Shown here piece by piece: positions 42,817 through 58,105 of a stretch of 64,000 nucleotides of DNA (the first letter of the stretch is position 1; each line of letters opens with the position of its first letter). The notes beneath the pieces were generated by a model. It ran no database searches. It saw only the letters and a program-made list of their open reading frames with translations, and was not told the origin of the DNA. The stretch comes from a virus (lineage: Duplodnaviria; Caudoviricetes), in the IMG/VR virus record IMGVR_UViG_3300049144_000095, positions 96,001 through 160,000 of that record; one strand, written 5' to 3'. The translations under genes were made by a program, and so were the position numbers.

Positions 42817-43128
42817 ATGGAACGGCCCGGCATGGCCACGGTGGAGCGGTGGCTGAGGCACACCTCCCTCCAGTCACAGGGTGAGACGGTCTATCAGATC
42901 GCCAGCGAGCTGCGCGGGGAAGTCAACGGGCTGTGGGCGGCCATGAACGGCGCCGTCACGGCCCGGCCCGGCAAGAAGGAGCAGGCCCGCCGGGAGGCGG
43001 TCATCCTCGGCATGAAGCGGGCCCTGATGGTGGCTCTCGGAATGCCTCCGGGGCCCGTGGACGTCGTGGACACGTTCCTGGAGGAGTTCAAACAGGAACG
43101 CCTGGAGGCTCGTCGCAAGAACCTCTGA
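42817..43128 (+). CDS. hypothetical protein
   Basis: Co-oriented; 2 nt after upstream stop. Confidence 0.7.
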   Translation: MERPGMATVERWLRHTSLQSQGETVYQIASELRGEVNGLWAAMNGAVTARPGKKEQARREAVILGMKRALMVALGMPPGPVDVVDTFLEEFKQERLEARRKNL

Positions 43129-43163
43129 GCAAGCGAACACACCGGAAAGAGAGAAGGAAACGC

Positions 43164-43238
43164 ATGGACCGCGCCATCGACGCCATCGTCACGGCCATCA
43201 TCCTCATCCTCACGAAGCGGGAAGAGCGACGCCGATAG
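43164..43238 (+). CDS. micro-peptide (24 aa; MDRAIDAIVTAIILILTKREERRR)
   Basis: CCGGAAAGAGAGAAGG upstream; hydrophobic core and basic tail. Confidence 0.5.
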   Translation: MDRAIDAIVTAIILILTKREERRR

Positions 43239-43254
43239 GCATCACTCCGCCCCC

Positions 43255-43316
43255 GAGGCCGAAACCCCCGACAGGGGGTCGCGGAATGGGTGTCCCGCCT
43301 GACGATGGCCGTCAGC
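43255..43316 (+). ncRNA. type II hammerhead ribozyme HH1; predicted cleavage after C43280 (GUC)
   Basis: GGCC-GAAA-stem III CCCCC/GGGGG-TC-stem I GCGG/CCGC-CTGACGA-T-GGCC; all core nucleotides present, extra U between A9 and G10.1. Confidence 0.85.
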
Positions 43317-43338
43317 AAGCAACCGGCAAGGAGAAGAA

Positions 43339-43653
43339 GTGCAGCAGATCACTTTCGGCACGAGTCACCGCCTGAGCGTCTACGCCCTGGGGGACACCAC
43401 CCGTATGAACGTCGAGCGTGCGCTGCGCGTACGCGGTCACGCCAACGTGTCCGTCACGGACGTCGCGGACGACGCCGCCTGGGAGGGGGAGAGCCGCCTG
43501 CGTCTCGTGAGCGGCGCCTACAACGGAGTCGATCCGCACACCGCTCTGTACCTGGTGGCCGACGATCAGACGGAGGCGGCAGTCGCGGAGGCCCTGCATC
43601 TGCTGAAGCCGGACGCCGTCCTCAACAGCCAGTGGATCACTCGGCCCGAGTAG
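43339..43653 (+). CDS. hypothetical protein
   Basis: AAGGAGAGAAG upstream; starts 59 nt after the HH1 cut site. Confidence 0.8.
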   Translation: MQQITFGTSHRLSVYALGDTTRMNVERALRVRGHANVSVTDVADDAAWEGESRLRLVSGAYNGVDPHTALYLVADDQTEAAVAEALHLLKPDAVLNSQWITRPE

Positions 43654-43759
43654 GCCACTCTCTCGGGAGGGTGCGATCCAGGTGGCGACGACGGCAGTTC
43701 GATTCGCCTCTCGCGACTGATTCCCCCTTGACGGGATGCGATCAATACATCACTCCTTG

Positions 43760-43776
43760 TACGATGGCCTAGGCCA
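43760..43776 (+). promoter_or_regulatory. -10-like TACGAT fused to perfect palindrome site 7 (TGGCCTAGGCCA)
   Basis: Intergenic. Confidence 0.75.
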
Positions 43777-43803
43777 CACGGTCATCGGAGAGGAGAGAGA
43801 AAC

Positions 43804-43926
43804 GTGATCGCCGATTTACTGCGCCCGCACGGCTGCTACATCGCCGACATCGAGCAGGGCGGGCAGAGGATGACCATCGTTCACCGCTGCGGAAGCAGCG
43901 ACTGCCCGACCAATCAGGGCGGATGA
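43804..43926 (+). CDS. micro-protein (40 aa; H.C..HRC..C)
   Basis: GGAGAGGAGAGAG upstream; not in ORF track. Confidence 0.55.
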   Translation: MIADLLRPHGCYIADIEQGGQRMTIVHRCGSSDCPTNQGG

Positions 43927-43930
43927 ACAC

Positions 43931-43961
43931 GAGGGGCCCTGGTTGCAACCCAGGGCCCCTC
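43931..43961. terminator. perfect 12-bp hairpin (terminator-like)
   Basis: GAGGGGCCCTGG/CCAGGGCCCCTC; no U-tail. Confidence 0.55.
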
Positions 43962-43966
43962 ACCCG

Positions 43967-43983
43967 TATCGTGACCTAGGCCA
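43967..43983 (+). promoter_or_regulatory. -10-like TATCGT fused to palindrome site 8 (TGACCTAGGCCA)
   Basis: Follows the hairpin; precedes TCGGAAAGGGGAGG and start 44001. Confidence 0.75.
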
Positions 43984-44000
43984 CTCGGAAAGGGGAGGCA

Positions 44001-44405
44001 ATGAGCTTGAGCATGAGCCCAGCCAGAACGCTGAGCATGGACGTACTGGCCAGCAACGGAGAGGCGCTGCGGATCACCGTGCACCGCACCGGCGCAGGCC
44101 ACGTCGAACTGAACAACCTGCTGGAAGTTGCCGAGGTGCTGCGTGACGGAGGCCTCGCCCCCGTGGGCGCGTACAGCGTGCGCGGCTTCCTGTCGCTGGC
44201 CGACGACGACAGCGTGACCATCCTGGACGCCGAGAGTGGTCTGGCCATCCCGAGGCAGTGGACGATCGCGGTCGGCGACTGGCTCCAGATGCTCGCCGAG
44301 GATCTGACGGACGGTCCAGACGGGGCCCCCTCGGTTCAAGTCCACAACGAGGCCTACGGCAACGACCCGGCGATGTGGGCCAGCGGGAAGCTGTCGTCGC
44401 AATAA
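44001..44405 (+). CDS. hypothetical protein
   Basis: TCGGAAAGGGGAGG upstream. Confidence 0.8.
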   Translation: MSLSMSPARTLSMDVLASNGEALRITVHRTGAGHVELNNLLEVAEVLRDGGLAPVGAYSVRGFLSLADDDSVTILDAESGLAIPRQWTIAVGDWLQMLAEDLTDGPDGAPSVQVHNEAYGNDPAMWASGKLSSQ

Positions 44406-44485
44406 GGACGGGGCGACCACCGGATGCCGACCTCATTGTCACTGGGGCGTGGCAGCATCAGCGACTGAACAGAAAGGAGGGGAGG

Positions 44486-44815
44486 GTGACCGTGGTAACG
44501 CCGGACGATTACCTGGGGCCGAGGATCGAGGGCGTGGTCCAATTCCAGGACGGCAAGAGCTACATGGTGAGCGCCAGGCCCCGGAAGGATGTCGGCTTCA
44601 CCGACGGATCGATGATCGGCTTCCGGCCGGTCGGGAAGCGCGGCAGTTCGTGCCTCCAGGTTGGCCTGCTGCGCTGGCTCGTGAGAAACGTGGACGAGCC
44701 GGGCGGGTCACTTGAAGGTCTCGGCCTGCTTTCTACGCTGACCAAGGCCGACGCTGGGACGCTTCTGGCATGGCTGGACGCGCAGGACGGAACGAATGGG
44801 GAGGGTGGTTCATGA
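44486..44815 (+). CDS. hypothetical protein
   Basis: AGAAAGGAGGGG upstream. Confidence 0.75.
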   Translation: MTVVTPDDYLGPRIEGVVQFQDGKSYMVSARPRKDVGFTDGSMIGFRPVGKRGSSCLQVGLLRWLVRNVDEPGGSLEGLGLLSTLTKADAGTLLAWLDAQDGTNGEGGS

Positions 44816-45021
44816 GGTACTTCGAGGTGCACTACGAGGCCCCGGGGGGCGCTCAGTACTACCGGCAGGGCGGTCAGGAGAACCTGGGGTCCACCCTCGG
44901 ATACCAGCGCGCCGAGTCCCTGTACGAGGACGACAGGGGCGTGACCATCACCTTCGATCAGGGCGCTACCATCCAGATCCCCCGCCACCGCCTGATCATG
45001 GTCGTGAAGGGGTCGGCGTGA
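44812..45021 (+). CDS. hypothetical protein
   Basis: ATGA overlap. Confidence 0.75.
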   Translation: MRYFEVHYEAPGGAQYYRQGGQENLGSTLGYQRAESLYEDDRGVTITFDQGATIQIPRHRLIMVVKGSA

Positions 45022-45464
45022 CCTTCCATCATGCGACCGGCAACCTCCTCGACTCCCACTGCACCGGCCTGGTGAACCCCGTGAACTGTGTGGGGGTCGC
45101 CGGGGCCGGACTGGCGAGGCAGTTCAGGGATCGCTGGCCGGTGCAGGTGGCCGAGTACACGAAGTTCTGCCGGGACGGGAAGATGCGGCCGGGCGTCATT
45201 CACGAGGCGCTGCTGCCGACCGGCCAGACCATCCTCAGCGTGCCGACGAAGCGGCACTTCCGGGACCAGTCCCGGCTGGACGATGTCCGGCTCGGGGTGC
45301 GGGCGCTCGCCGAGTGGCTGCGGCGGAGCCCGGTCACGATCGCCATCCCGCCCCTGGGGTGCGGGCTGGGCGGACTACCGAAGGCGGAAGTCCTGGCACT
45401 GATCGAAGAGGAGCTGGGCGAAGCCGAAGTGGACATCTGGTTGTACGACTTCAACGCCATGTGA
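45018..45464 (+). CDS. stand-alone macrodomain protein, DarG-like ADP-ribosylhydrolase (148 aa)
   Basis: GNLL..LVNPVNCVGVAGAGLARQF..PTKRHFR..S.L..+A+PPLGCGLGGL; the PTK lysine (catalytic in DarG) is retained. Confidence 0.9.
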   Translation: MTFHHATGNLLDSHCTGLVNPVNCVGVAGAGLARQFRDRWPVQVAEYTKFCRDGKMRPGVIHEALLPTGQTILSVPTKRHFRDQSRLDDVRLGVRALAEWLRRSPVTIAIPPLGCGLGGLPKAEVLALIEEELGEAEVDIWLYDFNAM

Positions 45465-45481
45465 TCGAAAGGAGGAGGACT

Positions 45482-45808
45482 GTGAGCGAACCCATCAGCG
45501 CCCGGGACCGGCTTCACATCAAGCGCTGCCAAGGCAAGTGCTACATCGATTCGGACCAACCGGACGCAGACTGCCGGAACCTGGACTGGTACCTCGATCG
45601 AATCGAGGAGCAGGCCCTGTACCTGGCGGCAGGGCAGGTGCTCAAACTCCGCCAGAAGGTGGCACGTGAACACGGGGCCGAAGCCGCTCACGGGCTGGTG
45701 CTGGCTGTCAATGCGGTCAGTCCGTACACCCGTCGCACGGACGGCCATCTGATCCGCAAGTCGGACGAGCTGCTGGTCCCCCGGTTCCCCGGGGACGGGG
45801 TGGACTAG
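45482..45808 (+). CDS. hypothetical protein
   Basis: GAAAGGAGGAGG upstream. Confidence 0.8.
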   Translation: MSEPISARDRLHIKRCQGKCYIDSDQPDADCRNLDWYLDRIEEQALYLAAGQVLKLRQKVAREHGAEAAHGLVLAVNAVSPYTRRTDGHLIRKSDELLVPRFPGDGVD

Positions 45809-46092
45809 TGGACGGACAGCGTGCCTACATCACCTTCGACTCGGACAGTACGCTGCGGGTGACCGTCCACGAGGGCTGCGCTCTCTACATGGACGGGACC
45901 CCCGTCCCAGGTATGTCCTGGTCGTTTCCGCTGGCCAGCGACGAGTGCGACCACCTCTTCGGCGCACAGCCCGACCAGCCATTCGCGGACGCGGACCGCC
46001 TCCTGGCCGACCACGGGTGGAACCGTGACGGCACCTGGGTCATGGGGGGCAGCACCTCGGGAACCTATGCACGGGTCACTCGTGCACACTGA
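45808..46092 (+). CDS. hypothetical protein
   Basis: TAGTG overlap. Confidence 0.75.
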   Translation: MDGQRAYITFDSDSTLRVTVHEGCALYMDGTPVPGMSWSFPLASDECDHLFGAQPDQPFADADRLLADHGWNRDGTWVMGGSTSGTYARVTRAH

Positions 46093-46121
46093 CACACAAG
46101 CCACTCGGAAAGGGTGAAGAG

Positions 46122-46448
46122 ATGCAGTTGATGAAGAGCAAGCCGACTTTGAAGGATGTGGACGGCCGGGTGCCCGGCCGGGTCCAGCTCGTCTCCATCA
46201 GACTGGACGAGGACGACCCGAAGCAGATGTGCACGTTCTTCGAGGAGGAGTCCGGCAAGAGGGACCCCTACCTGCGGGCCGAAGGGCTCATGCGGAGCCT
46301 GGAGGACGACTGGCCGGAGCACGAGTGGGCCATGATCGGCAACTGGCGGGCCCGCTACCTCCTCTGGGCCTGGAACATGGAGAACATGGGGCTCGACTTC
46401 GGAGAGGATGCCCTGTCGCCGCAGGCATACCTCGACACCTTCGAGTAA
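46122..46448 (+). CDS. acidic hypothetical protein
   Basis: TCGGAAAGGGTGAAG upstream. Confidence 0.8.
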   Translation: MQLMKSKPTLKDVDGRVPGRVQLVSIRLDEDDPKQMCTFFEEESGKRDPYLRAEGLMRSLEDDWPEHEWAMIGNWRARYLLWAWNMENMGLDFGEDALSPQAYLDTFE

Positions 46449-46473
46449 CCCGACCTCGAAAACGGAGAAAACC

Positions 46474-46809
46474 ATGAAGCCAGCCCCTCTGGACTACGAC
46501 ACGGACGCCGACAACTTCCTCAAGGCAGTGTTCACGGTGCCGCCCTGGGAGGCGGATGTGACCAACCCCAGTGTGCCCGGCGGGCCTACGGTGCGGCCGG
46601 AGCATGTCGTGATCCTCTTCCGGCTGGGCAAGGACCGCCGCTGGTACCCCGACATCATCAACGTGGTGGGGCCCAAGATCACCGGCCCCGGCAAGCGGAC
46701 CAAGCGGCACTACGAGGTGCCCTTCACGAACGTCGCCGAAGGTGACTCGGGTGCGCCGGACTACGCGGTCGCCGAGGCTGAGGCCCTGGCTGCGAAGCTC
46801 AACGCCTGA
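46474..46809 (+). CDS. hypothetical protein (paralog of 15365-15673)
   Basis: ACGGAGAAAA upstream. Confidence 0.8.
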   Translation: MKPAPLDYDTDADNFLKAVFTVPPWEADVTNPSVPGGPTVRPEHVVILFRLGKDRRWYPDIINVVGPKITGPGKRTKRHYEVPFTNVAEGDSGAPDYAVAEAEALAAKLNA

Positions 46810-46880
46810 GGTGCTTCAGTGTGGGCCCGGCTACGGCCGGGCTCTCGCTGTGGAATCTCACGGAAAGGGAGAATAAACGC

Positions 46881-47219
46881 ATGATCGTGGTTTCACCCGG
46901 CATAAAGTTGCGAATCAAAGACAGGTCCAGCTTCGCCACGCAGACTCTCGTCACCCTCTCGTCCCTCATGCTGAAGTACGACGAGGAGATCACGGACGCC
47001 GCGTACAGCGATCGTCTGGCGCATAACGGCCTGGCGGTGTGGCTCCGCGTGGAGCCGATGGTCCTCAGCTCACGGCGCCTGCCGCAGGCCGTGGAGGTTG
47101 AGATCGGCTACGGAGACGAGATCCTGATCGAGGTCGGCCGCAAGGAGGAGCGCGGCGCCTGGCTGGTGGCCCCACCTCTGGTCGGAGACGCCTGCCGTCT
47201 CGTACGCAGGGAGAGCTGA
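46881..47219 (+). CDS. hypothetical protein
   Basis: ACGGAAAGGGAG upstream. Confidence 0.75.
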   Translation: MIVVSPGIKLRIKDRSSFATQTLVTLSSLMLKYDEEITDAAYSDRLAHNGLAVWLRVEPMVLSSRRLPQAVEVEIGYGDEILIEVGRKEERGAWLVAPPLVGDACRLVRRES

Positions 47220-47221
47220 CG

Positions 47222-47470
47222 GTGGCCGCACTCGACGGTTTCCCGCTTCCCACCACGGCTCGGCACGACAAGGACGGCAACCACGTTCCGCCCTTCATTG
47301 CGGAGTGGCGGGCCGCCGCCGACCCGACGTCACCCGCATACGACCCGGACCGTGCGGCGTCCGGCCGGGAGGTGGAGCGGGATCAGCAGCAGAAGGCGCT
47401 GTTCCATGCCCACCTGGAAGAGCACCGGCGCCGGGGTGAACCGGATGTCACGATGGAAGACAAGTACTGA
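47222..47470 (+). CDS. hypothetical protein
   Basis: GGGAGAG upstream. Confidence 0.65.
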   Translation: MAALDGFPLPTTARHDKDGNHVPPFIAEWRAAADPTSPAYDPDRAASGREVERDQQQKALFHAHLEEHRRRGEPDVTMEDKY

Positions 47471-47487
47471 GGAAAGAGAGAAGAGAC

Positions 47488-47754
47488 ATGCACCGGAGCG
47501 AGATCAACGAGGACGTGAAGGTCGAGGACTGCGCGTTCGACCTGGATGGCGACTACGGCTACCGGCCGATCCTGCTCACCGCCATCGCGAGCGTGGACGG
47601 CAGCGACGTGGCTGTCCCGGTCGACCAGGACAGTCCGGAGGGGATGATCCTGGCCCTCACCGAGGAGCAGGGCATGCAGGCGCTGCTCCTGCTGGCCCGG
47701 CAGCTCGGCAAGGACAAGAGCCTGGAGGCCATCACGAAGGACGAGGAGGGGTGA
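47488..47754 (+). CDS. acidic hypothetical protein
   Basis: GGAAAGAGAGAAGAG upstream. Confidence 0.8.
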   Translation: MHRSEINEDVKVEDCAFDLDGDYGYRPILLTAIASVDGSDVAVPVDQDSPEGMILALTEEQGMQALLLLARQLGKDKSLEAITKDEEG

Positions 47755-48137
47755 AGGTGCTTCTCACATCCGCCAGCGAGATCCTTCAGAGTCCGACGAG
47801 GGTGGTTCCTGAGGTCGGCATGGCTGCTTCGGTCATCACGTTCACCGACCGGGAACCGGTCACGGTTGTCGAGGTCATCCCCTTCAAGTCCGGCCCCCTC
47901 AAGGGGCAGGCCCGGGAGGTCGTTGTCACGTATGACGACTGGAAGGTGGTGTCCGGCAGCGAGCACGACGGCTCGGCGGTCTACGAGTACACCTCGAATC
48001 CCGACGGCCATCAGCAGTCATTCGTCCTGAGTACGCGGGGGCGCCGGGTCGGGCACTGGCTCCAGAAGGGGACGGGCGGCATCGGATACTCCTTGGTGCT
48101 GGGCTACCGCGAGCGGTACCGGAATCCGCACTTCTGA
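47751..48137 (+). CDS. conserved phage-type hypothetical protein
   Basis: PEVGM.A....DR..VTV..YEY..NP.G..L.LGYRE.Y.NP.F motif. Confidence 0.8.
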   Translation: MKVLLTSASEILQSPTRVVPEVGMAASVITFTDREPVTVVEVIPFKSGPLKGQAREVVVTYDDWKVVSGSEHDGSAVYEYTSNPDGHQQSFVLSTRGRRVGHWLQKGTGGIGYSLVLGYRERYRNPHF

Positions 48138-48165
48138 ACCCTTTCCGGCTGAGGCGACGTCACGC

Positions 48166-48182
48166 TACAATGGCCTAGGCCG
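48166..48182 (+). promoter_or_regulatory. -10-like TACAAT fused to palindrome site 9 (TGGCCTAGGCCG)
   Basis: Intergenic. Confidence 0.75.
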
Positions 48183-48213
48183 AAAGTAGTGCACGCTGGA
48201 AAGGGGAAGGTGA

Positions 48214-48306
48214 ATGGCCGAACAGAAGACCGAGGCGGGTCTGCCCAGGCGGGAACCGGGTGCGACCAACCCCCCGGCACCGGGGCCTCGTCCGCCGCAG
48301 GAGTAG
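48214..48306 (+). CDS. Pro-rich micro-peptide (30 aa)
   Basis: GGAAAGGGGAAGG upstream; not in ORF track. Confidence 0.4.
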   Translation: MAEQKTEAGLPRREPGATNPPAPGPRPPQE

Positions 48307-48384
48307 TTCCGTACTGCTCTTGACCGTTCAACGAGAGGGCGTCGAAACTGGCGCCCTCTGTTCCATGTTCGGGAAAGGCTGGAA

Positions 48385-48690
48385 ATGACTCCCAGGGAAC
48401 TCTTTGCTGGCACAATTCCTGGCCCGTGCTGGGTGCATGGCAGCGACCTCGGGGTGGACGAGGACGGTGGCCTCTGGGTCCGGGCCACGGCGCACCTCAA
48501 GGAAGGCCTGGCATCCCGGGTGCACCCGCTCGGGGAGAGAATCACCATGAAAGACTTCCGGGAGTACTCCATACTCACTCCCGAGGGGCAGACCATCCTG
48601 GATCCTCGTCACCGAACTGAACCACTCTGGCGGCGAGTTCAGGAGTTGAGCGCCGAATCGATCGGCAGCGACTGGATCGCCGTCCACTGA
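48385..48690 (+). CDS. hypothetical protein (paralog of 57709-58014)
   Basis: WV..DLGVD.DG.LWVR..WI.V. Confidence 0.7.
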   Translation: MTPRELFAGTIPGPCWVHGSDLGVDEDGGLWVRATAHLKEGLASRVHPLGERITMKDFREYSILTPEGQTILDPRHRTEPLWRRVQELSAESIGSDWIAVH

Positions 48691-48716
48691 CGGCACACGG
48701 AAAGAGAGAAGAGACG

Positions 48717-49136
48717 ATGGAGCCGTTCGAGTACCGGAATCGGTTCGCCGACCGCTTCGCCGAGAGGGCCGCCGACAGCGACTACTCCCGCTACAGCCAG
48801 CTTCAGGACACCACTTCGGAGGACATCCGGGCGGCGGCCGAGGCCCTGTGGTGGAAGAAGTGGCGCAGCCCGGAGGACTACAGCGAGCAGGTCACGGAGG
48901 CGGACGTCATCGAGGCCCTGCTCGCCAAGGCCGAGTACTACAGCGACGACAACCACCTGGTCTCGGTCGTCTACGAGACCTACTGGGACATGACGGACAA
49001 GCTCGGCCTGCCGTCCGGCCTGCTCCAGCAGATGGAGAAGGCGTTGTCCCGGAAGTACCTCGACGAGAAGCGGGCCGAGGGCTTCGCGGTGGTCAACAAC
49101 GACCACGGCATCTGGCTGTACCGGTTCGAGGGCTGA
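48717..49136 (+). CDS. acidic hypothetical protein, weakly ArdA-like
   Basis: ACGGAAAGAGAGAAGAG upstream; EYYSDD..VYE.Y..LP..L..G..+YR layout. Confidence 0.75.
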   Translation: MEPFEYRNRFADRFAERAADSDYSRYSQLQDTTSEDIRAAAEALWWKKWRSPEDYSEQVTEADVIEALLAKAEYYSDDNHLVSVVYETYWDMTDKLGLPSGLLQQMEKALSRKYLDEKRAEGFAVVNNDHGIWLYRFEG

Positions 49137-49141
49137 CGACC

Positions 49142-49711
49142 ATGGAGATCATGGAGATCAACTGCGCCCGGAAGTGCAACGGATGCCAGCTCGGCAAGCA
49201 CGTCTGCGGTGGACGCGAGTGCGACGGCCAGGGCTGCTGCGCCTGCCAGGGTGAGACATCCCTCGCCATCCACAAGGATGCGGACGAAGGGGGCTGCCGC
49301 GACCCCCGCATGGAGAGCTGGAGCGGGTCGGCTCGCCTCGACTGGATCGCCGGTGGACGTCAGGTCGGGCAGGAGAGCCTGACCTTCACGGTCCACTGCA
49401 TGGAACAGCCACAGGAGCCGGGCCTGAAGCCCATCGACATGCGGCGCCTGGTGACCCTTCAGCTTGTGTGCGCGGAAGCACGGAAGCGTTACGGCGTGCC
49501 CCCTCGCTCGGTGCGTGTGGACGTGGAAATGGGGCTGGACGACTCCACCACCGAGCCGGTCCTGAGCCGCGCTCGCTGGCGGCTGGGTCAGGGCTTCTGC
49601 CACGGCATGGGAATCCTGGGCGTCGCCTCTCCCCCGCCGGGTGCCCGCCTGGCCGACATCCACGAGCAGCAGCACCCCTCGCCCGCGACTACCGAAGAGA
49701 GTTCGACATGA
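49142..49711 (+). CDS. Cys-rich hypothetical protein
   Basis: C..KC..C..H.C..C..CC.C N-terminus. Confidence 0.7.
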   Translation: MEIMEINCARKCNGCQLGKHVCGGRECDGQGCCACQGETSLAIHKDADEGGCRDPRMESWSGSARLDWIAGGRQVGQESLTFTVHCMEQPQEPGLKPIDMRRLVTLQLVCAEARKRYGVPPRSVRVDVEMGLDDSTTEPVLSRARWRLGQGFCHGMGILGVASPPPGARLADIHEQQHPSPATTEESST

Positions 49712-50730
49712 ACGCAACCAACGACATCACGCCCCTCGGCACTCCCGTCGCGAACACCGACACCCTGGAGGACTCCGCCCTCCTGGCCGCCCTGGACTCC
49801 CGTGACGGGACACTGGACACCCCGGACGGAACCCGCCTGGTCTCCCAGGGGCTCGCCACGACCGACGGTGACGGCAGCTACTTCCTCAGCGCGCTGGGCC
49901 GCGAGAGGGCCGAGGAGATGCGCGCCCGCGAGCGCGACCTGATCAGCGACGACATGCTGCGTGTGATCACGAAGCACGTACCTCGTGCTACCGCCCGGAG
50001 CGCCGGGTGGATCTCCGGGGTCACCTGGTACGAGGAGCGCCCCTACATCGACCTGGTCCGCCCGGCCGACCTGCCCGCCAAGGCGTTCCCGCAGCGCATG
50101 CGAGACCTCCTCGCCGCCGTCCACCACGACGCCCGTTCGGTGCTCGGACTGTTCTCCGAGGTCGACGGGAACCGGCTGCTGTTCGGTGCCCTGCGTCCGT
50201 CCCCCCGGGGGGTGACGCCCCGACTGGGGGAGCCCGACGATGAGCGGGACAAGCGCATCGCCGCCAGCGGCCACGCTGACGCCGTCTGGAGCGACCTGTG
50301 CGCCTCCGACGGACGTCCTTCGGTTCATGCTGCCTGGGCTCCGGGTGATGGCAAGGGTCAGGCGCCGATGGGGTATGCCTTCCACTACGCCAGTCGCACC
50401 GCCCTCCTGACCCTGGAGGACGGTGACCAGTACACCGTCAGCTTCGGCGTCAGCGGCCAGCCCGATGCGGGCCGGACCTGGACCGGACATCGCGCGGACG
50501 TGGCGGTCAAGGCGATGGCCCGGGATCTGTACGGCACGCTGTGCGCCCACGAGTACGGCACCGGACGCGACTCGTGCCCCGGCTGCGACTACACGGGAGA
50601 GGAGTTCGAGTCCGCCCACAAGGGTGAGCTGACGGTCATGCCGGGCAGTCTGCCCAAGCTCACCCGCGTGGTCTTCGACGACTCCCTCGCCCCTCTCAAC
50701 GTCATCCACAAGGTGCACCCCGAGGGCTGA
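49708..50730 (+). CDS. multi-domain hypothetical protein (340 aa): N-terminal wHTH-like segment, C-terminal C.H..CxxC
   Basis: L.SQGL..YFLSALG; LCAHEY..CPGCD; ATGA overlap. Confidence 0.8.
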   Translation: MNATNDITPLGTPVANTDTLEDSALLAALDSRDGTLDTPDGTRLVSQGLATTDGDGSYFLSALGRERAEEMRARERDLISDDMLRVITKHVPRATARSAGWISGVTWYEERPYIDLVRPADLPAKAFPQRMRDLLAAVHHDARSVLGLFSEVDGNRLLFGALRPSPRGVTPRLGEPDDERDKRIAASGHADAVWSDLCASDGRPSVHAAWAPGDGKGQAPMGYAFHYASRTALLTLEDGDQYTVSFGVSGQPDAGRTWTGHRADVAVKAMARDLYGTLCAHEYGTGRDSCPGCDYTGEEFESAHKGELTVMPGSLPKLTRVVFDDSLAPLNVIHKVHPEG

Positions 50731-50774
50731 GAGCGGCCCGGTGCGCCGCTGTTCATCCGCGCACTCGGCTCACT

Positions 50775-50812
50775 CAAGGGCGGCCCTTTCCGGGGTCGCC
50801 CTTGTTTCATTT
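50775..50812 (+). terminator. intrinsic terminator-like hairpin
   Basis: 12-bp stem CAAGGGCGGCCC/GGGTCGCCCTTG plus TTTCATTT. Confidence 0.7.
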
Positions 50813-50818
50813 CCGGAG

Positions 50819-50830
50819 TGACCTAGGCCG
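50819..50830. promoter_or_regulatory. Palindromic operator-like site 10 (TGACCTAGGCCG)
   Basis: Right after the terminator; intergenic. Confidence 0.75.
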
Positions 50831-50866
50831 ATGGCTGGTAGACTCCGCACAACGGAAGGAGAGGAA

Positions 50867-51355
50867 ATGCACGAGGAGTTGATCAGGTTCCCGGGAGTCG
50901 GCGGGACCTGGTCGGACGCGGGAGAGGGCCGCATGTACGTGTACGCCGTCGTCCCTCGGCCCGTCGACTACCCGGACAACTGCATCGTCGAGAACATGAT
51001 CGTCCTCACGGAGCCCGACGCCCCGGTGAGCGACATCCGCCCCCTGTGGGGGGATCCAGCCTCGGCCGCCGAGGAAAAGGCGGCCCGGCGAGACGCGGCC
51101 CGCCTGATGGACCGTGAGGGCTTCGCCGTGAAGGCGGCCTCGGTCCGTTCCTTGGTATCCCTCGACAGCTTCTCCGTGGACATGCTGGCCGCTGTCTTCA
51201 TGGGGTCAACCCACCACAGCCTCCAGGTTTCTGGGGGTGGCACCTTCTGGGAGGCTGCCCGGGAAGATCTCACCGTCGCTGGCACCCAGCTTCTGGACCG
51301 GCTTCACAGCGCCTTCGGCGTCGAGCCGGTCCTGCTGACCTTCCTGGACACCTGA
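50867..51355 (+). CDS. hypothetical protein
   Basis: ACGGAAGGAGAGG upstream. Confidence 0.8.
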   Translation: MHEELIRFPGVGGTWSDAGEGRMYVYAVVPRPVDYPDNCIVENMIVLTEPDAPVSDIRPLWGDPASAAEEKAARRDAARLMDREGFAVKAASVRSLVSLDSFSVDMLAAVFMGSTHHSLQVSGGGTFWEAAREDLTVAGTQLLDRLHSAFGVEPVLLTFLDT

Positions 51356-51401
51356 CAACCCGTCGGAGGCGACAGCCCGACATCGGAAAGAGAGAAGAAG
51401 C

Positions 51402-51905
51402 ATGGAACTCATCCAGTCGCATCACGCGCCTGGGCCGGGCCCGATCCACATCGAGGCGCCGGAGCTTCCGGTCGAGATCACCGTCCGCTCGGACGTCGAG
51501 TACCGGCAGGTTCACGTCATGGTCGACCGGGGACTGGGTGCACACGCCAGGTCCGGAGGCGCCGGAGGCCGGGAGCTGCACGTCGTCGTCGGCCGTCCCG
51601 GCATGGTGGCCTGGATCGCCAGTCTCTTCGGGCGGCAGAGTTCCGCCACCTCCGGGGGTTCCGTCAAGGCCGGGCGAAAGTCTGTCGTTGCGGGCGGGAG
51701 CATCGACTCCAATGCCATCGGCAAGGGCGCCAGGGTCACCATCGACGGACAGCCGGTGCAGCGCAAGGGACCTGGGGTCCACCTGACCGTGCCCCCGGGA
51801 TGCACCTTCGATGTCCGCGCGCACGACGGCATCAGGGTGCACTACAACATGACCGAGATGACCATCGAGACGGCAGTCGAGATCGGCATTCTGGAGCGTG
51901 CCTGA
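51402..51905 (+). CDS. Gly-rich beta-structured hypothetical protein
   Basis: TCGGAAAGAGAGAAGAAG upstream. Confidence 0.8.
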   Translation: MELIQSHHAPGPGPIHIEAPELPVEITVRSDVEYRQVHVMVDRGLGAHARSGGAGGRELHVVVGRPGMVAWIASLFGRQSSATSGGSVKAGRKSVVAGGSIDSNAIGKGARVTIDGQPVQRKGPGVHLTVPPGCTFDVRAHDGIRVHYNMTEMTIETAVEIGILERA

Positions 51906-52108
51906 TGTCCGTGGTCGTGGAGGACGGTTACCTCGTGGAACGCTTCTCCGGCGGCCGGTTGCGGAAAGCGCAGATCGTTGCCGAGCGGCCCGAAGGTGCC
52001 TCACACAGCCTGTCCGTCACCACCGAGGACGGACAGAAGTACAGAACCGGATGGTTCTACGCTCCAGGCATCCGCCAGGGTCGCGCTGTTGCGTGGCCCG
52101 CAACCTGA
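51905..52108 (+). CDS. hypothetical protein
   Basis: TGATG overlap. Confidence 0.7.
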   Translation: MSVVVEDGYLVERFSGGRLRKAQIVAERPEGASHSLSVTTEDGQKYRTGWFYAPGIRQGRAVAWPAT

Positions 52109-52138
52109 GCAGCTAGACGGAAAGGGGAGGAATCAAGG

Positions 52139-52537
52139 GTGAACGCATCGCTTACGCCGTTCACGGAGGAGGAGCTGGAGGCCGCCATCGACAGCGTGTC
52201 GATGGGGTACTACCGGCGGGCTTCCGAGCACGACAAGGCCAAGATCCGCTCTTGGCTGCCGGGCCTCCAGGCCATGTCGGACAAGGACTTCGTCGTCGAG
52301 GCCGCGTCGAGGATTCTCGACTCGGCCATCATGAACGGCTATCGGGGCAACGCTTCGGGGATCCACGCCATGGCGGACATCTGCCAGGACGAGGCTGCCC
52401 GGCGCCATCAGGCGGCGGGCCATGCCGCCGACTGCCGGGGCTCCGACTTGTACAGCAGGGCGTACAACCTGGCGCGCACGAACCAGGGCCACAAGGCTAC
52501 GTTCCTGGCCCCTTGCACCTGCGGCTTCGAGAAGTAG
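52139..52537 (+). CDS. hypothetical protein (H..C..H..CxC)
   Basis: ACGGAAAGGGGAGG upstream. Confidence 0.8.
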   Translation: MNASLTPFTEEELEAAIDSVSMGYYRRASEHDKAKIRSWLPGLQAMSDKDFVVEAASRILDSAIMNGYRGNASGIHAMADICQDEAARRHQAAGHAADCRGSDLYSRAYNLARTNQGHKATFLAPCTCGFEK

Positions 52538-52556
52538 TGAGAGCGGGGAGGACGAG

Positions 52557-52844
52557 ATGTTCCAGTACGACATGGTCACCGGGGCCATCGAACTCGGTCG
52601 CGACAGTCAGGCGGTGCAGAACTACAAGGCCGGAACGGGCGCCCTCATCTACGCCTTGAAGGCGGGCGGATGGTCGGACGAGCAGATCGAGAACGGCCTG
52701 CGCACCCACTTCGAGAGCGTGGCCGCCGTTCTGGTGGAGCATCTGCGTTCCCATGCAAGCCAGCAGAACTACAGTGACGCCTTCCGAGCCGTCGCCAGCG
52801 CGCTCATCGACAGGATCGACCCCGCCGAGATCAACGGCAACTGA
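52557..52844 (+). CDS. hypothetical protein
   Basis: GGGGAGG upstream. Confidence 0.8.
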   Translation: MFQYDMVTGAIELGRDSQAVQNYKAGTGALIYALKAGGWSDEQIENGLRTHFESVAAVLVEHLRSHASQQNYSDAFRAVASALIDRIDPAEINGN

Positions 52845-52860
52845 CGAAAGGAGAAGAAGG

Positions 52861-53394
52861 GTGAACGCGAAGAAGTGGCCCTCTCTGGGTGACGTGATTT
52901 TGGTGCAGGACGTGCCGACCACCGACGCCCAGCGGGAGCTGTGGAAGAACCGGCAGCCGCCAACCAGGAAGGGTGAGGTGGTTGAGGTCCCGAACGAGGA
53001 CGGCAGCGGGTTCCTGGTGATCGATGTCGGCGGCGAGTACGGCGGCGTCAACTACGCGGCGCGTGATTTCTCGACGCGGTACGTCTGGAAGCCCACCGGC
53101 GAGAAGGTCGACAGGGAGCAGCAGCGCAGCGAAGCGAGCGCACTGGTGCAGTCGATCCGGCGGCAGGCTGACGGGGCGGTCGAGTACCAGCCGACCATGA
53201 ACATCTACGACGAAGCCGAAGACGGCCCCGCCATGCTCTTGTGCCTGCCCGTCGCGATCGTCGAAACCCTCGTCGACGTGGCGTACCGGCACATCACCCC
53301 GAGCATGGGGCTCGACGGGGCGTTCGTTGACGAGCTGCGCTACCAGCTCGCCGACTACCGGGCTTCTCTCAAGTCCCGGGGGCAGGGAGCATGA
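52861..53394 (+). CDS. hypothetical protein
   Basis: GAAAGGAGAAGAAGG upstream. Confidence 0.8.
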   Translation: MNAKKWPSLGDVILVQDVPTTDAQRELWKNRQPPTRKGEVVEVPNEDGSGFLVIDVGGEYGGVNYAARDFSTRYVWKPTGEKVDREQQRSEASALVQSIRRQADGAVEYQPTMNIYDEAEDGPAMLLCLPVAIVETLVDVAYRHITPSMGLDGAFVDELRYQLADYRASLKSRGQGA

Positions 53395-53618
53395 TCTCGA
53401 TCGAAGACCTGAGTCTCACGTCCATCGACGGTATACGCCACACGACGACCAGCGAGAGCATCGTCGCCGCCGTCGTCTTCGCTGCGAAGCTCGGCCATTC
53501 GACACGGACGGCGTACCGGTTCGTCACCGCGCTCGTCATGGTGAACGCCCTGGACGACATCTCCCAGTGGGAAGACGTCCTTCGCCAGGTCGTGACCCTG
53601 GAAGGGGAGGGCGCCTGA
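53391..53618 (+). CDS. hypothetical protein
   Basis: ATGA overlap. Confidence 0.7.
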   Translation: MISIEDLSLTSIDGIRHTTTSESIVAAVVFAAKLGHSTRTAYRFVTALVMVNALDDISQWEDVLRQVVTLEGEGA

Positions 53619-53619
53619 G

Positions 53620-53925
53620 GTGAGGATCACCGGCGTCAGCCAGGACGGACGGAAATGGATCAACCGGCGCATCACCTTCCGGCTGTGCGGAGGTGACTTC
53701 GCGAACGTCCTCTGCCTCGTCTACCGGGAGCACGACCTGGAGGAAGACGGTCCCCTCCCGGACCTCAGCAAGGCCAAGATCCTCGAACTCGTGGACGACG
53801 TCCTGCTGGAGCGAGCAGACAAGCGGAACTGGTGGAGCGACGACGTGGACGACGACGACTTTCGTGACGCCCTGTGGGAGTGGGCGGACGAACTGATCCG
53901 CCGCAGATTCCCCGAGTTCTACTGA
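53620..53925 (+). CDS. acidic hypothetical protein (paralog of 35854-36234)
   Basis: GGAAGGGGAGG upstream. Confidence 0.8.
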   Translation: MRITGVSQDGRKWINRRITFRLCGGDFANVLCLVYREHDLEEDGPLPDLSKAKILELVDDVLLERADKRNWWSDDVDDDDFRDALWEWADELIRRRFPEFY

Positions 53926-53939
53926 CTGGAGAACGCACA

Positions 53940-54167
53940 ATGACCGACCTCGCCGCCGAACGCGACAACCTGCTCGTCCAGGCCCGCGCCAAGACGCCTG
54001 GCATCCGCATCACCGCCGAAGCGCCTGCCGACGATGCTGACGCTCTGCGCGCAGAGATCACCGCGCTGCGGGAGTTCATCAACCGCCCCACGCCCGGACT
54101 GCACACCGACACGTACGACGAGGCCACCGACCCCGACGGCCCGAGCGACGACCCCACGAACGTCTGA
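53940..54167 (+). CDS. hypothetical protein (C-rich block)
   Basis: GGAGAA upstream. Confidence 0.75.
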   Translation: MTDLAAERDNLLVQARAKTPGIRITAEAPADDADALRAEITALREFINRPTPGLHTDTYDEATDPDGPSDDPTNV

Positions 54168-54197
54168 CTCGCCCACCAACCCCAGGAGCAACCCGCC

Positions 54198-54608
54198 ATG
54201 ACCACCTGGTACGCCTGCCAGCATCACGGCAACGATATTCACACCACCGAAGGTGACGCCATCCATCGCACGTGCGCCCATGACGGCACCGTGCACTACG
54301 CCTGTGCCCCCCGTCGCGCACCGCACGGCACACCCCGACCTGCCGACTGGCCGACCTCTCTCGACTGGATCACGGAGGGGTCCACCGCATCCGTCGGCGA
54401 CGACTTCGACTTCGAGGCTGTCGCCCGCGCTGCGTACGCCGAAGCCGTGACCGCCGGGGATACCCGCGCCGCGCATGCGCTCGCCGCATGCTTGCCTCGC
54501 TCACTCACTCCTGAGGAGCAGCGTCGGGCCGTCGAAGCCGCCTGGTCCGGCGTGATCCGCAACAGCAGCTTCGGCAAGCTTCCGCCCGGCGTCACCCGCA
54601 TCCGCTGA
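54198..54608 (+). CDS. hypothetical protein (C-rich block; C.HH..H.C.H..H.C)
   Basis: AGGAGCAACCCGCC upstream. Confidence 0.8.
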   Translation: MTTWYACQHHGNDIHTTEGDAIHRTCAHDGTVHYACAPRRAPHGTPRPADWPTSLDWITEGSTASVGDDFDFEAVARAAYAEAVTAGDTRAAHALAACLPRSLTPEEQRRAVEAAWSGVIRNSSFGKLPPGVTRIR

Positions 54609-54641
54609 CCAGCCCGCCACGCGTCTTAGGAGCAACCCGCC

Positions 54642-55058
54642 ATGGCCACGCCGACCACCACCGCTCAGGATGCCGCTCGCGAGCGCCTGCGCACCACCGT
54701 CGCCGCGATCCTCGCCGATGTGTACGACCGCACCACCGACCCCGACGCCGCCGAGCAGGCCGTCATGGACGCCGCGCAGCAGTGGGGCACCGAGGGGTAC
54801 GTCATCAACGCCACGCCCGCCGAGCCCTGCCCCGGCAACGGCTACGGCAACGGCGGCACCGTCAGCCGCTGGTACGCCCCGAACGGCTGGCAGGACACCC
54901 CGCCCATCGACGCCAACGCCGACGCCGACCCCGGCTCGTACACCGTCGGCGAGCGCGTCACCTGCCCCCGCTGCTCCGCCTCCGTGGCCGTCGAGCGCGT
55001 CAAGACCACCAAGCGCGAGACCGGCACACAGTACGTCGCCTGGCTCGCCCGCCACTGA
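54642..55058 (+). CDS. hypothetical protein with zinc ribbon (C-rich block)
   Basis: AGGAGCAACCCGCC upstream; CPRC..H. Confidence 0.8.
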   Translation: MATPTTTAQDAARERLRTTVAAILADVYDRTTDPDAAEQAVMDAAQQWGTEGYVINATPAEPCPGNGYGNGGTVSRWYAPNGWQDTPPIDANADADPGSYTVGERVTCPRCSASVAVERVKTTKRETGTQYVAWLARH

Positions 55059-55079
55059 CCACTAGGAGCACCCCCCACG

Positions 55080-55343
55080 ATGGCTTACATCGAAATCGAC
55101 GAGATCGATGGCCTTTTCGACGTCGAGGAGACCTTTCATCACGGCAAGCCGATGACCGTGCTCAGCATTCTTGGCATGCCCGTGCTGTACGGGCCGCCCG
55201 GCAGGCTGGACCGGCAGTACGGGGATGAGGTGCTGGAGGAGCTGAAGCCGCACATCGCCAAGGCGCTGGCGAGGCTCCTGCTCGCCGACGGCAACCTCCC
55301 GGGCTGGCAGGCCGAGCCGGTCGACGTCGAACCTCCACACTGA
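55080..55343 (+). CDS. hypothetical protein (tandem paralog of 55480-55752)
   Basis: AGGAGCACCCC upstream; MA.IEI.EI.GLF.V. Confidence 0.8.
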   Translation: MAYIEIDEIDGLFDVEETFHHGKPMTVLSILGMPVLYGPPGRLDRQYGDEVLEELKPHIAKALARLLLADGNLPGWQAEPVDVEPPH

Positions 55344-55479
55344 CGAGACGGTTCGTGCCAAGCCCGGACATCAACCCAACATCGGAGCGTCGCATCTCTT
55401 GCCTTACCGATATGCATCCGTCACTCCGCACGCCATTCGGACCGTCTCGCCCAGCACTGACCGTAGGGAGAAGAAGCAA

Positions 55480-55752
55480 ATGGCGAAGATCGAGATCAAC
55501 GAGATCGAGGGCCTGTTCACCGTGGATGTAGCCAGGGACACCGGCGGCAACTACGTCGGCGTACTGAAGATCCTCGGTCACACAGTGCTGTACGCCCCGG
55601 AAGAGGTCGTGCTGCACCCCGGCACTGCCCACTGGAACGACGTCACCAGTGGGGTCCTGGCTCGCTTTCTGGCGACACAGTTGATGGACAGCGGCGCCAT
55701 GGAGGGATGGGACTTCACGTCGCCCACCGGGCGAGAGGTGAGCGGGGACTAA
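55480..55752 (+). CDS. hypothetical protein (tandem paralog of 55080-55343)
   Basis: AGGGAGAAGAAG upstream. Confidence 0.8.
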   Translation: MAKIEINEIEGLFTVDVARDTGGNYVGVLKILGHTVLYAPEEVVLHPGTAHWNDVTSGVLARFLATQLMDSGAMEGWDFTSPTGREVSGD

Positions 55753-55872
55753 CGGCCCATCGATTGGGATGGCTCCACGCCCGACCTGAATGTCCGCCAG
55801 AATGACCCCGGCGTTCCGATCCGGTACCGGAGCGCCGCATCCTTCACTCAACTCCCAAGGAGGGTCCCTGTC

Positions 55873-56220
55873 GTGGGACTGAACTCTCGCGTTGCCCAGA
55901 TCGTCTGGGGCCTGGTTCCGCTCGTTCTCGCCGGTTCCATTCTGGAGCTGCCGTTCATCTGGCGGGCGCTCAAGACCAAGAAACGTAGCGACATCCGGCT
56001 GGCGGTCATCTTCGGTGTGGTGCAGCTCGGCGTCTGGCTGCTCTACGTCATCTTCACGCAGGACTCCAGCACCCTGCGCGAGGACGTCCCGGCCGCCCTC
56101 ATCTGGATCAGCGCCTTCGCCGCCGCCGTCGCCGCCGCGTACGTGTACCGGCCGCTGAACAAGGAGGAGCGCATGGACCAGGCGGCCCAGGACCGGCGCC
56201 CCGGCTCGTCGTATCTGTAG
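55873..56220 (+). CDS. membrane protein, 3 predicted TM segments
   Basis: AAGGAGG upstream; three hydrophobic stretches. Confidence 0.8.
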   Translation: MGLNSRVAQIVWGLVPLVLAGSILELPFIWRALKTKKRSDIRLAVIFGVVQLGVWLLYVIFTQDSSTLREDVPAALIWISAFAAAVAAAYVYRPLNKEERMDQAAQDRRPGSSYL

Positions 56221-56343
56221 GACCCCCGGCCAGCCAGCAGGCAGCGACGTTACACATGAGCAGCAACCACGGCAGGCCGGGTGAGGCCCTGAAGGGCACG
56301 ACCGCAGGCCACTGAACAGAATCAATCGGAAAGGAAACGCAGC

Positions 56344-56652
56344 ATGGGCAGCAACGACAGCTCCCTCGATGAGCGCTACCCCGAGCACGCCAAACAGCGC
56401 AAGGTCATCTCCCAGATGGACGCAGTCCAGTCCTTCCTCGACGCCATGCAGGAGCGGGGTCTCGAACTCGGGGAGACGGTGGTCACGCGGGTCGCCGTGT
56501 TCGAGGGCACCGAGGAGTGCACCGCCGTGCAGTCGGTCAGGGGGGAGAGGCTGACACGGCTGGTCAACGAGCACTTCGGCATCGACCGCTCCAAGATCCT
56601 GGCCGAGAAGGAGCAGATGATCGCCGACATGGCGGCAGGAAGTCTCCGATGA
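56344..56652 (+). CDS. conserved phage-type hypothetical protein
   Basis: YPEH.K..FL..G..L..FGID..+..EK motif; TCGGAAAGG upstream. Confidence 0.8.
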   Translation: MGSNDSSLDERYPEHAKQRKVISQMDAVQSFLDAMQERGLELGETVVTRVAVFEGTEECTAVQSVRGERLTRLVNEHFGIDRSKILAEKEQMIADMAAGSLR

Positions 56653-56978
56653 AGCCGAGTGAACGCCTTCTGAAGATGATCCGCCAACAGCTCCCCGAGC
56701 TGGACATCCCCGAAGGCGCCCGGCTGGAGCGAGCTGCTGGGTCCTACGCCGGATGGAACCGCACATCGCTCGGAGCCTGGGTGTGGACGGCGGTAGACGC
56801 GAACGGCGTACCCCTGCACCGGAACTCCGAGGGACAGCCCCTGGCCATAGGTTCCCAGTGGACCATGACCGAGCTGGTGCGCGCAGGTTCCCTCGCGGCC
56901 AACCCATCGGGAGCGAACCCCGGAGACATCCACATCGAGCCGACAGACGAGAAGCAGCGAGAGGGGGTGGCACAGTGA
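56649..56978 (+). CDS. conserved phage-type hypothetical protein
   Basis: GAW.W..IGSQW.+.EL motif; ATGA overlap. Confidence 0.8.
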   Translation: MKPSERLLKMIRQQLPELDIPEGARLERAAGSYAGWNRTSLGAWVWTAVDANGVPLHRNSEGQPLAIGSQWTMTELVRAGSLAANPSGANPGDIHIEPTDEKQREGVAQ

Positions 56979-57259
56979 ACGGCTACACCGAGCTGGTTGT
57001 CGATGTGTCCGGCCTGTACGACGGCTACACGGCGCCCGAAGTGATCTGCCAGCGAGCGCGGGATCACTGGCTGAACGAGTTCGCGGCGGCCGAACTCAAG
57101 CTCCCGTTCGGAGAGGGCAAGCAGCAACGGCTGGACGACGGCATGTACCTCATCTACTGGTTCGTCGGCACCGACGAGTACTGGTACTACGTCACGCTCA
57201 ACATGAATCAGTACAAGGTCACGACCGAACGGAAGGGCAAGGCGCAGAAGCGCGCCTGA
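56975..57259 (+). CDS. hypothetical protein
   Basis: GTGA overlap. Confidence 0.75.
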   Translation: MNGYTELVVDVSGLYDGYTAPEVICQRARDHWLNEFAAAELKLPFGEGKQQRLDDGMYLIYWFVGTDEYWYYVTLNMNQYKVTTERKGKAQKRA

Positions 57260-57280
57260 CGGAACGGAAAGGGGAAGAAC

Positions 57281-57652: not shown

Positions 57653-57672
57653 CCCCAGGCCGAAACCGGGCA
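57649..57672 (+). repeat. truncated hammerhead 5' half; 24-nt direct repeat of 58011-58034 with 1 mismatch
   Basis: CTGACCCCAGGCCGAAACCGGGCA vs CTGACCGCAGGCCGAAACCGGGCA. Confidence 0.75.
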
Positions 57673-57708
57673 GCCAATTCAGTCTTTAGAAGGGAGGGAG
57701 TGGGACCA

Positions 57709-58081: not shown

Positions 58082-58105
58082 GGAGGAACCGGAAAGGGGA
58101 AGAGC

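Follow-up and report, generated by a model that had tools for sequence, protein, structure and literature searches.

The window analysed here is a stretch of 64,000 nucleotides, bases 96001-160000 of a 251,159-bp phage record in IMG/VR that is linear, 100% complete according to CheckV and ~66% G+C. Within it, a 100-nt spacer separates two genes of the same strand, between a stop codon at 43236-43238 and a GTG at 43339, and a preliminary description of the window placed a hammerhead ribozyme, HH1, in this spacer. The question that the locus raises is whether such an RNA could cut itself between two phage genes and, if so, what its particular structure might contribute. A previous survey reported type II hammerheads, frequently with a pseudoknot between loop I and the 3' tail, in arrays flanking single prophage genes, and put forward the idea that long transcripts of phages are thereby divided into shorter mRNAs (Perreault et al. 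2011, PMC3088659). Hammerheads were also described in a review as flanking small unconserved ORFs in phages (PMC6155905), and two reviews regard their biological role as still open and point to their persistent link with phages. Intergenic hammerheads of phages have been known since 2011, and the novelty of HH1 is much lower than the preliminary description implied. What appears from sequence comparison to be new is a conserved helix between the catalytic core and a short 3' tail, which competes with the active fold in a subfamily that Rfam misses.

HH1 occupies positions 43256-43316 of the window on the + strand, as do all the parts named below. Direct reading of the sequence and the cmscan and cmsearch alignments find every hammerhead element in the type II order, that is, A, GGCC, GAA, ACCCCC(GACA)GGGGGU, C, GCGG...CCGC, CUGACGA, U, GGCC, GUCAG and C. 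The letters are those first written down and the identification as a hammerhead, of type II, holds; only the start, placed at 43255, was two bases early, with GGCC running from 43257. The conserved A and the first-transcribed strand of stem II, GGCC (43256-43260, positions 11.x), precede the core nucleotides G12 A13 A14 (GAA, 43261-43263), which are invariant in alignment A1. The stem III hairpin (43264-43279), assigned from the sequence and from family pairing, consists of A15.1-U16.1 (A43264-U43279) and CCCCC/GGGGG with the loop GACA. C17 (43280) takes the position of the GUC triplet in the hammerhead consensus, and cleavage is predicted between 43280 and 43281. Stem I, with the loop GGGU, spans 43281-43298 in alignment A4 and is an irregular helix: four clean pairs (GCGG/CCGC) are followed by an A.C mismatch, an A-U pair and a U.G pair, and the cmsearch alignment flags one non-standard pair. 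The catalytic core C3 U4 G5 A6 C7 G8 A9 (CUGACGA, 43299-43305), invariant except at N7 in 77 members, is followed by an extra U (43306) between A9 and G10.1, by the stem II strand after the core (GGCC, 43307-43310, positions 10.x, pairing with 43257-43260), and by the tail GUCAG(C) (43311-43316), of which GUCAG (43311-43315) is complementary to core C3-C7. G10.1-C11.1 does not directly adjoin A9 in HH1, where one U intervenes that the Rfam model counts as an insertion; comparison with the relatives described below indicates that this U is a family trait and not damage. The conserved hammerhead core set (C3-A9, G12-A14, A15.1-U16.1 and H17) is complete in HH1 and in its sister copy, HH2.

HH2 lies on the + strand between a stop codon at 58012-58014 and a GTG at 58106. 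With its upstream CUGAC it spans 58011-58081: the CUGAC (58011-58015) contains the stop codon of ORF 57700-58014, the hammerhead occupies 58019-58075 with the predicted cut after 58046, and the tail follows at 58076-58080. The 21 nucleotides said to be identical in the two copies are indeed an exact 21-mer, at 43296 and 58061, 14,765 bp apart, which has no further occurrence in the window or in the 251-kb genome as a whole, and none in 100 shuffles. The cut after 43280 had been predicted to share the geometry of HH2, and the two leaders agree, with 58 nt to GTG 43339 in HH1 and 59 nt in HH2. Stems I and III differ in sequence between the copies and nevertheless pair in both, as had been observed, although stem I of HH1 is not a regular helix.

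A truncated third copy, a 5' half, is found at 57649-57676 on the + strand. It begins at the stop codon of ORF 57281-57652 and comprises CUGAC, a spacer, GGCC, GAAA, and the 5' strand of stem III with the loop AGCCA, after which the sequence is unrelated; its match to HH2 extends over 28 nt with 2 mismatches. Past the truncated copy the sequence directly enters the Shine-Dalgarno (SD) sequence of ORF 57700-58014, which itself ends at HH2. This small ORF is framed by one partial and one complete ribozyme, which points to an exchange of genes through recombination at the elements. The string AGGCCGAAAC occurs three times in the window, against 0.18 expected. When the phage genome was searched with R2, a covariance model built from 75 phage sequences with the window copies left out, HH1 scored 62.6 bits (E 1e-15), HH2 75.7 bits (E 1.4e-19) and the next best match 11.7 bits, and models of type I and type III hammerheads had no match in the 251-kb genome. 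The genome contains exactly two full hammerhead copies plus one truncated half, and the model search of related phages found further copies in Streptomyces phages. The idea of a family dispersed in this genome therefore stands to the extent of two full copies and a half, but it was overstated, as the dispersal is across many phages. A weak model match of 13.6 bits at window positions 48166-48231, where AGGCCGAAAG is followed by an SD and an ATG without a catalytic core, is either the remnant of a hammerhead 5' half or a chance resemblance.

Standard annotation does not reveal these elements. Rfam, run on the window at the gathering threshold, returned no match; with Hammerhead_II (RF02276, clan CL00010), HH1 scored 24.2 bits and HH2 30.4 bits (genome-wide E of 0.0015 and 3.4e-5) relative to a gathering threshold of 37, which is a detection cut-off and not a structural feature. 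Among ~25 members in 20 loci of the subfamily, none was detected by Rfam 15 at the gathering threshold, and four Burkholderia-type loci gave no Rfam match at E 0.01.

A scan of IMG/VR with a pattern composed of GGCCGAAAC, GUC and CUGANGA-N-GGCC found at least 119 stretches, and the exact 17-mer of core plus tail was present in 64. The family of HH1 comprises well over 100 phage elements with covarying stems I and III. Among the matches listed, an A precedes the first GGCC in 117/118 members, H17 is C in 117/118, and the extra U follows A9 in 113/118. Stem II is a fixed 4 bp, GGCC/GGCC, throughout the subfamily, and carries no covariation information, since GGCC was set by the search pattern. 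Stem I typically has 6 bp and a 5-nt loop bounded by U...G, and is 17 nt long in 101/118 of the matches listed. In the covariation alignment, A1, which holds 77 sequences (75 from outside the window together with HH1 and HH2), pairing reaches 98.7% in stem I and 93.7% in stem III, and double changes are seen at 6/7 and 5/7 of their pairs, respectively. The covariation score was 0.505, compared with 0.139 after shuffling and at most 0.105 with the partners slid; 91.7% of the cells of stems I and III were paired, versus 71% in the shuffled sequences, and double-change cells numbered 341 versus 121. Both stems covary as RNA helices, G.U pairs included. Selection on the fold, which the preliminary description had suspected from two copies, is thus borne out by compensatory changes in stems I and III across the collected family.

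The members are also alike in their surroundings. Without exception they are on the same strand as the genes, in the gap that runs from a stop codon to the next SD; where an ORF of at least 40 codons lies upstream, its stop codon ends 0-6 nt before GGCC in 71/88 cases, the next SD-preceded start comes at a median of 27 nt past the element, and the leader after the predicted cut has a family median of 56 nt (IQR 52-59). Satis (L284, MH576962.1) has copies at 146460-146539 and 146771-146850 that bracket a single gene, 248, and Frankenweenie (L285, L287; OQ921725.1) has copies at 157609-157688 and 165379-165460. All of these score 58.6-78.5 bits with R2 and are absent from the GenBank annotation, and one of them coincides in part with the end of a gene called as a 'hypothetical protein'. 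A form with a long stem III is present in the Burkholderia phages BcepGomr and BcepB1A. In 185,579 species genomes (596 Gb), the exact 17-mer CTGACGATGGCCGTCAG was found in at least 120 bacterial or archaeal records, where ~70 occurrences of a 17-mer would be expected by chance, and a hammerhead was present at 3/80 of the loci tested (L228, L194, L172), the rest being chance matches. Judged by this one probe, the subfamily appears to be rare in species-representative genomes, and nearly all of the copies found are in viral contigs. The 17-mer was considered as a guide to host range and set aside; with only 3/80 loci being real hammerheads, we make no claim from it.

The phage itself has recognizable relatives. 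A 386-aa protein whose gene lies 1.5 kb past HH2 shares 54-57% identity with proteins of the Streptomyces phages Satis, Kradal, Quantum, EhyElimayoE, Kela, JustBecause and Frankenweenie, and these phages carry the same hammerhead subfamily, unannotated. The phage, a soil jumbo phage, is a distant relative of large Streptomyces phages such as Satis, Kela and Frankenweenie; its host is probably an actinobacterium, because both the relatives of its protein and the same hammerhead subfamily occur in Streptomyces phages. The same phage was found in at least 4 other soil metagenome studies, with 0-1 differences over the pieces compared within window positions 43000-58300, and is widespread in soils and nearly clonal in these data. 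Both elements are identical in these copies, and microdiversity is therefore uninformative on selection.

Around the two elements, the genes in this part of the window are all on the + strand, and no sigma-70-like promoter or intrinsic terminator was found within 1.5 kb of HH1 or HH2. The proposal that the elements punctuate mRNA is consistent with this setting. The gene that follows HH1 (43339-43653, + strand), defined from the ORF list and GC3, encodes 104 aa and has the SD AAGGAG at 43327-43332. No Pfam or PHROG family matched the four proteins flanking HH1 and HH2, tblastn of the gene downstream of HH1 gave no match, and neither did megablast of 8 kb around HH1 against phages. On the upstream side, a 130-aa ORF ends at 43128. 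A possible ORF of 24 codons (MDRAIDAIVTAIILILTKREERRR) lies at 43165-43238, is served by an SD of its own and has a hydrophobic middle and a basic tail; with its TAG 18 nt before HH1, HH1 may follow a tiny membrane peptide gene and not the 130-aa ORF. Two genes past HH2, window positions 58448-58801 encode a 117-aa protein with a phage ProQ C-terminal-like domain (PF24203, E 4.7e-16; phrog_3032).

Does loop I of HH1 make a tertiary contact? A pseudoknot between GGGUG of loop I and the upstream CACUC (43243-43247) had been suggested, and this pairing proved no better than chance (p about 0.6) when a 10-nt loop was set against a 25-nt G+C-rich flank. Across the family there was no general excess of loop I-flank helices of at least 4 bp. 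In a fixed register, which starts by pairing the first base of the loop with the nucleotide immediately 5' of the conserved A, the permutation p was 0.003-0.005, with at least 3 pairs in only 12/100 members. The nearest relatives of HH1, namely L035, L025 and the second Frankenweenie copy (165379-165460), share its type of stem III and its 10-nt loop I. In the register of this HH1 subtype, YGGA of the loop faces UCCG in the three relatives, and in HH1 UGGG (43287-43290) faces CCCG (43252-43255), a tentative partner directly 5' of the conserved A; the difference amounts to one compensatory double change. In the HH1 subtype, loop I may therefore touch the upstream flank after all, though in another register than the one first suggested. 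A 14-mer scan for further members of this subtype yielded only the three already known and chance matches. The published alternative, a pseudoknot between loop I and the 3' tail, was rejected: the tail is invariant and loop I variable, and no complementarity above chance was seen in HH1 or HH2.

The 3' tail shows a different relation. A tail of the form NUCAG, the reverse complement of core C3-N7, is present in 56/118 members among the matches listed. In A1, N7 and the first tail base are C/G in 30 rows and U/A in 11, with no exception among the 41 tailed rows. Several U/A rows are closest to C/G rows (L060 and L045 have 5 other differences, while the nearest U/A row has 13), and the double change therefore arose several times. 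IMG/VR was then scanned for ten of the sixteen possible N7/tail combinations, and each 17-mer found was checked for a preceding hammerhead. Those preceded by one comprised C/G in 49 cases, U/A in 15, A/U in 1 and G/C in 1, the only tailed elements with A or G at N7 being L439:2163-2179 (- strand), with the tail UUCAG, and L444:10063-10079, with the tail CUCAG. The combinations C/A, C/C, C/U, U/G, A/C and G/U occurred in no case with a hammerhead, the 24 such 17-mers found being chance occurrences in unrelated coding DNA, and a G.U wobble at the N7/tail pair was seen in 0/66. Because N7, the one free position of the core, is tracked by the tail with all four Watson-Crick pairs, the core-tail helix is, on this comparative evidence, under selection. 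The preliminary description mentioned neither the complementarity of tail and core nor the upstream partner that is missing from HH1.

In HH1 the putative core-tail hairpin would have 6 bp including G8:C, with 43299-43304 pairing to 43310-43315. A helix of this kind takes up C3-G8 and one pair of stem II, there being no linker between stem II and the tail, and it therefore cannot form together with the active ribozyme. A third segment, CUGAY, situated 8-12 nt before GGCC, accompanies the tail: among the matches listed it occurs in 28/56 tailed and 5/62 untailed members (p 3.5e-7). The UGA in which the preceding ORF ends is usually part of this segment, which can pair with the tail, extending stem II across a 4-5-nt bulge. 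Nearest-neighbour calculations give the alternative fold a mean advantage of 1.3 kcal/mol over the hammerhead; the two folds are about equal where CUGAY is present upstream, and where it is absent the alternative is ahead by 3.1 kcal/mol. For HH1, which lacks the upstream CUGAC partner, the alternative is ahead by 5-9 kcal/mol, and the minimum free energy (MFE) structure of the isolated element includes the core-tail hairpin. For HH2 the hammerhead fold is ahead by 1.3 kcal/mol, and the MFE structure with flanks is the hammerhead with stem II lengthened by CUGAC/GUCAG. The predicted 3' products of HH1 and HH2 begin with two adjacent hairpins at the extreme 5' end and leave the SD ~0.7 unpaired; the predicted 5' products end in the stem III hairpin.

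Taken as a whole, HH1 is quite probably a type II hammerhead self-cleaving ribozyme between phage genes, and we infer the following course of events from its sequence. A long polycistronic transcript would cut itself after C43280, leaving an upstream RNA closed by the stem III hairpin and a terminal 2',3'-cyclic phosphate, and a downstream RNA that begins with a 5'-OH G at 43281. The downstream RNA would then refold into the stem I hairpin followed by the pairing of CUGACG with CGUCAG, with the Shine-Dalgarno sequence left free. The cistrons on either side of the cut would in this way be parted, and a protective hairpin would border each of them. We favour the view that the core-tail helix would act mainly after the cut, where it would free the products, block re-ligation and cap the new 5' end; release of the products by this helix is conceivable because a 4-bp stem II alone joins them. 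Before cutting, the same helix may keep part of the uncut RNA in the off state, which the upstream segment containing the stop codon would relieve. In about half of the tailed members, HH2 among them, the upstream CUGAC would take the tail and lengthen stem II, favouring the active fold.

More tentatively, and with somewhat less confidence than doubt, the NUCAG tail may be read as a built-in two-state device, in which the upstream CUGAC, the core CUGAN and the tail compete. With the tail on the upstream segment, stem II would be lengthened and the ribozyme on, and with the tail on the core it would be off; after cleavage, product release would be irreversible and the downstream mRNA would carry a double-hairpin cap at its 5' end. 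A ribosome terminating at the stop codon would cover the upstream segment and the first strand of stem II, which could link the cut to translation of the preceding gene. If true, this would be a natural ribozyme insulator and switch, of which no description was found in the searchable literature. A literature search for the tail helix, or for hammerheads in Streptomyces or jumbo phages, returned nothing specific, and the supplements of PMC3088659 contain none of four short core and tail strings, a result that does not prove that their authors never saw the family.

HH1 might instead be a decaying relic that cuts below a useful rate, and is kept because the spacer is young or because its hairpins are useful in themselves, perhaps by stabilising RNA. 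Two losses set HH1 apart from L035, L025 and the Frankenweenie copy: 4 nt are deleted from the 5' strand of stem I, leaving the A.C mismatch, and the upstream CUGAC is replaced by CCGCC. These losses speak for a relic, as do the predicted advantage of the inactive fold and the clearly truncated copy elsewhere in the genome (57649-57676). Against this, its catalytic nucleotides, stems II and III, extra U, 5' A and tail are all intact, its leader length matches that of the family, and it reaches its high score in an independent model. A 4-bp stem I suffices for minimal hammerheads, and the 4-bp stem I of HH1 would be enough by that standard. A mere relic is an unlikely reading. The homology of HH1 to the hammerhead family is near certain; useful self-cleavage is judged fairly likely for HH1 and highly likely for HH2. 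Lacking CUGAC and 4 nt of stem I, HH1 is probably partly eroded and a weaker ribozyme than HH2.

Far less probable is that CTGACG-ATGGC-CGTCAG is chiefly a palindrome at the DNA level, or a simple RNA hairpin to which a protein binds, in the role of an operator or a site of recombination or packaging, with the likeness to a hammerhead being secondary. A DNA palindrome would also agree with the strict Watson-Crick covariation at N7 and the tail, in which the lack of G.U is slightly out of the ordinary for RNA pairing, and the gene cassettes bracketed by full and partial copies suggest recombination at such sites. However, the hammerhead is complete even in the half or so of the family that has no tail, the half-site coincides exactly with the invariant catalytic core, and stems I and III covary as RNA helices with G.U pairs. 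Moreover, orientation and position are constant, with each element on the coding strand in the interval that separates a stop codon from the next SD, and two tails read GUCGG, which keeps a U.G pair workable only in RNA. A chance likeness to the hammerhead consensus in G+C-rich DNA, which the Rfam scores below threshold and the frequent chance occurrence of the exact core 17-mer in bacterial genomes might invite, is vanishingly improbable and already refuted by the E value of 1e-15 with an independent model, the 21 nt common to the two copies, and dozens of homologues with compensatory changes.

The hammerhead as such is ordinary. A large phage subfamily, marked by the GGCC stem II, the extra U, the 5' A and often the NUCAG tail, goes unseen by Rfam 15; it is unannotated even in the cultured Streptomyces phages of SEA-PHAGES and in Burkholderia phages, and annotation pipelines therefore miss it. 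The strict Watson-Crick covariation of N7 and the tail is clean comparative evidence of a helix in competition with the active fold, and bears on the role of bacterial and phage hammerheads. Cleavage, the tail and stop-codon coupling can be tested directly in culture, with Satis and Frankenweenie and the Streptomyces hosts of these phages.

Among known systems, the type II hammerheads of Perreault et al. (2011) are the closest. They have the same core in the same permuted order, with stem II open and stems I and III capped, and lie between same-strand phage genes; both groups often flank single small ORFs, and the same role, cutting long phage transcripts, has been proposed for both. The arrangement in Fig. 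3 of that study, with elements on the same strand, short spacers and small ORFs bracketed, is found again at HH1, HH2 and gene 248 of Satis. In the majority of the published type II examples a pseudoknot joins loop I and the 3' tail (PMC3088659), whereas the tail of the present subfamily pairs with the catalytic core. The subfamily further differs from RF02276 in its fixed GGCC/GGCC stem II, the extra U and the 5' A, and the members tested score below threshold.

The three type II hammerheads of Desulfovibrio vulgaris were found by cyPhyRNA-seq to cleave in vivo (Olzog et al. 2021, PMC8782182). They are of the same type as HH1 and HH2 and likewise lie by phage-derived genes; in that case cutting has been shown in cells. 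The trio belongs to another host phylum, and the available text reports no competing tail helix.

An engineered counterpart is RiboJ, reportedly a synthetic insulator in which the sTRSV hammerhead is followed by a hairpin and which is said to go back to Lou et al. in 2012. Both would cut off the upstream context, and in both a 5' hairpin leaves the ribosome binding site exposed, as is predicted for HH1 and HH2. RiboJ is, however, of type III, and its hairpin lacks the catalytic core, while the hairpin of the subfamily is natural and would be built from the core itself. Hammerheads of viroids and satellite RNAs alternate with more stable inactive folds, and an extra nucleotide between A9 and G10.1 was reportedly noted in the CChMVd hammerhead by De la Pena and Flores in 2001. 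The alternation of active and inactive folds and the one extra base before stem II are thus features in common with the present subfamily. In viroids and satellite RNAs, however, the hammerheads reside in replicating circular RNAs, where the switch protects the circle, while here the setting is the mRNA of a DNA phage, and the competitor would be a tail of 5 nt.
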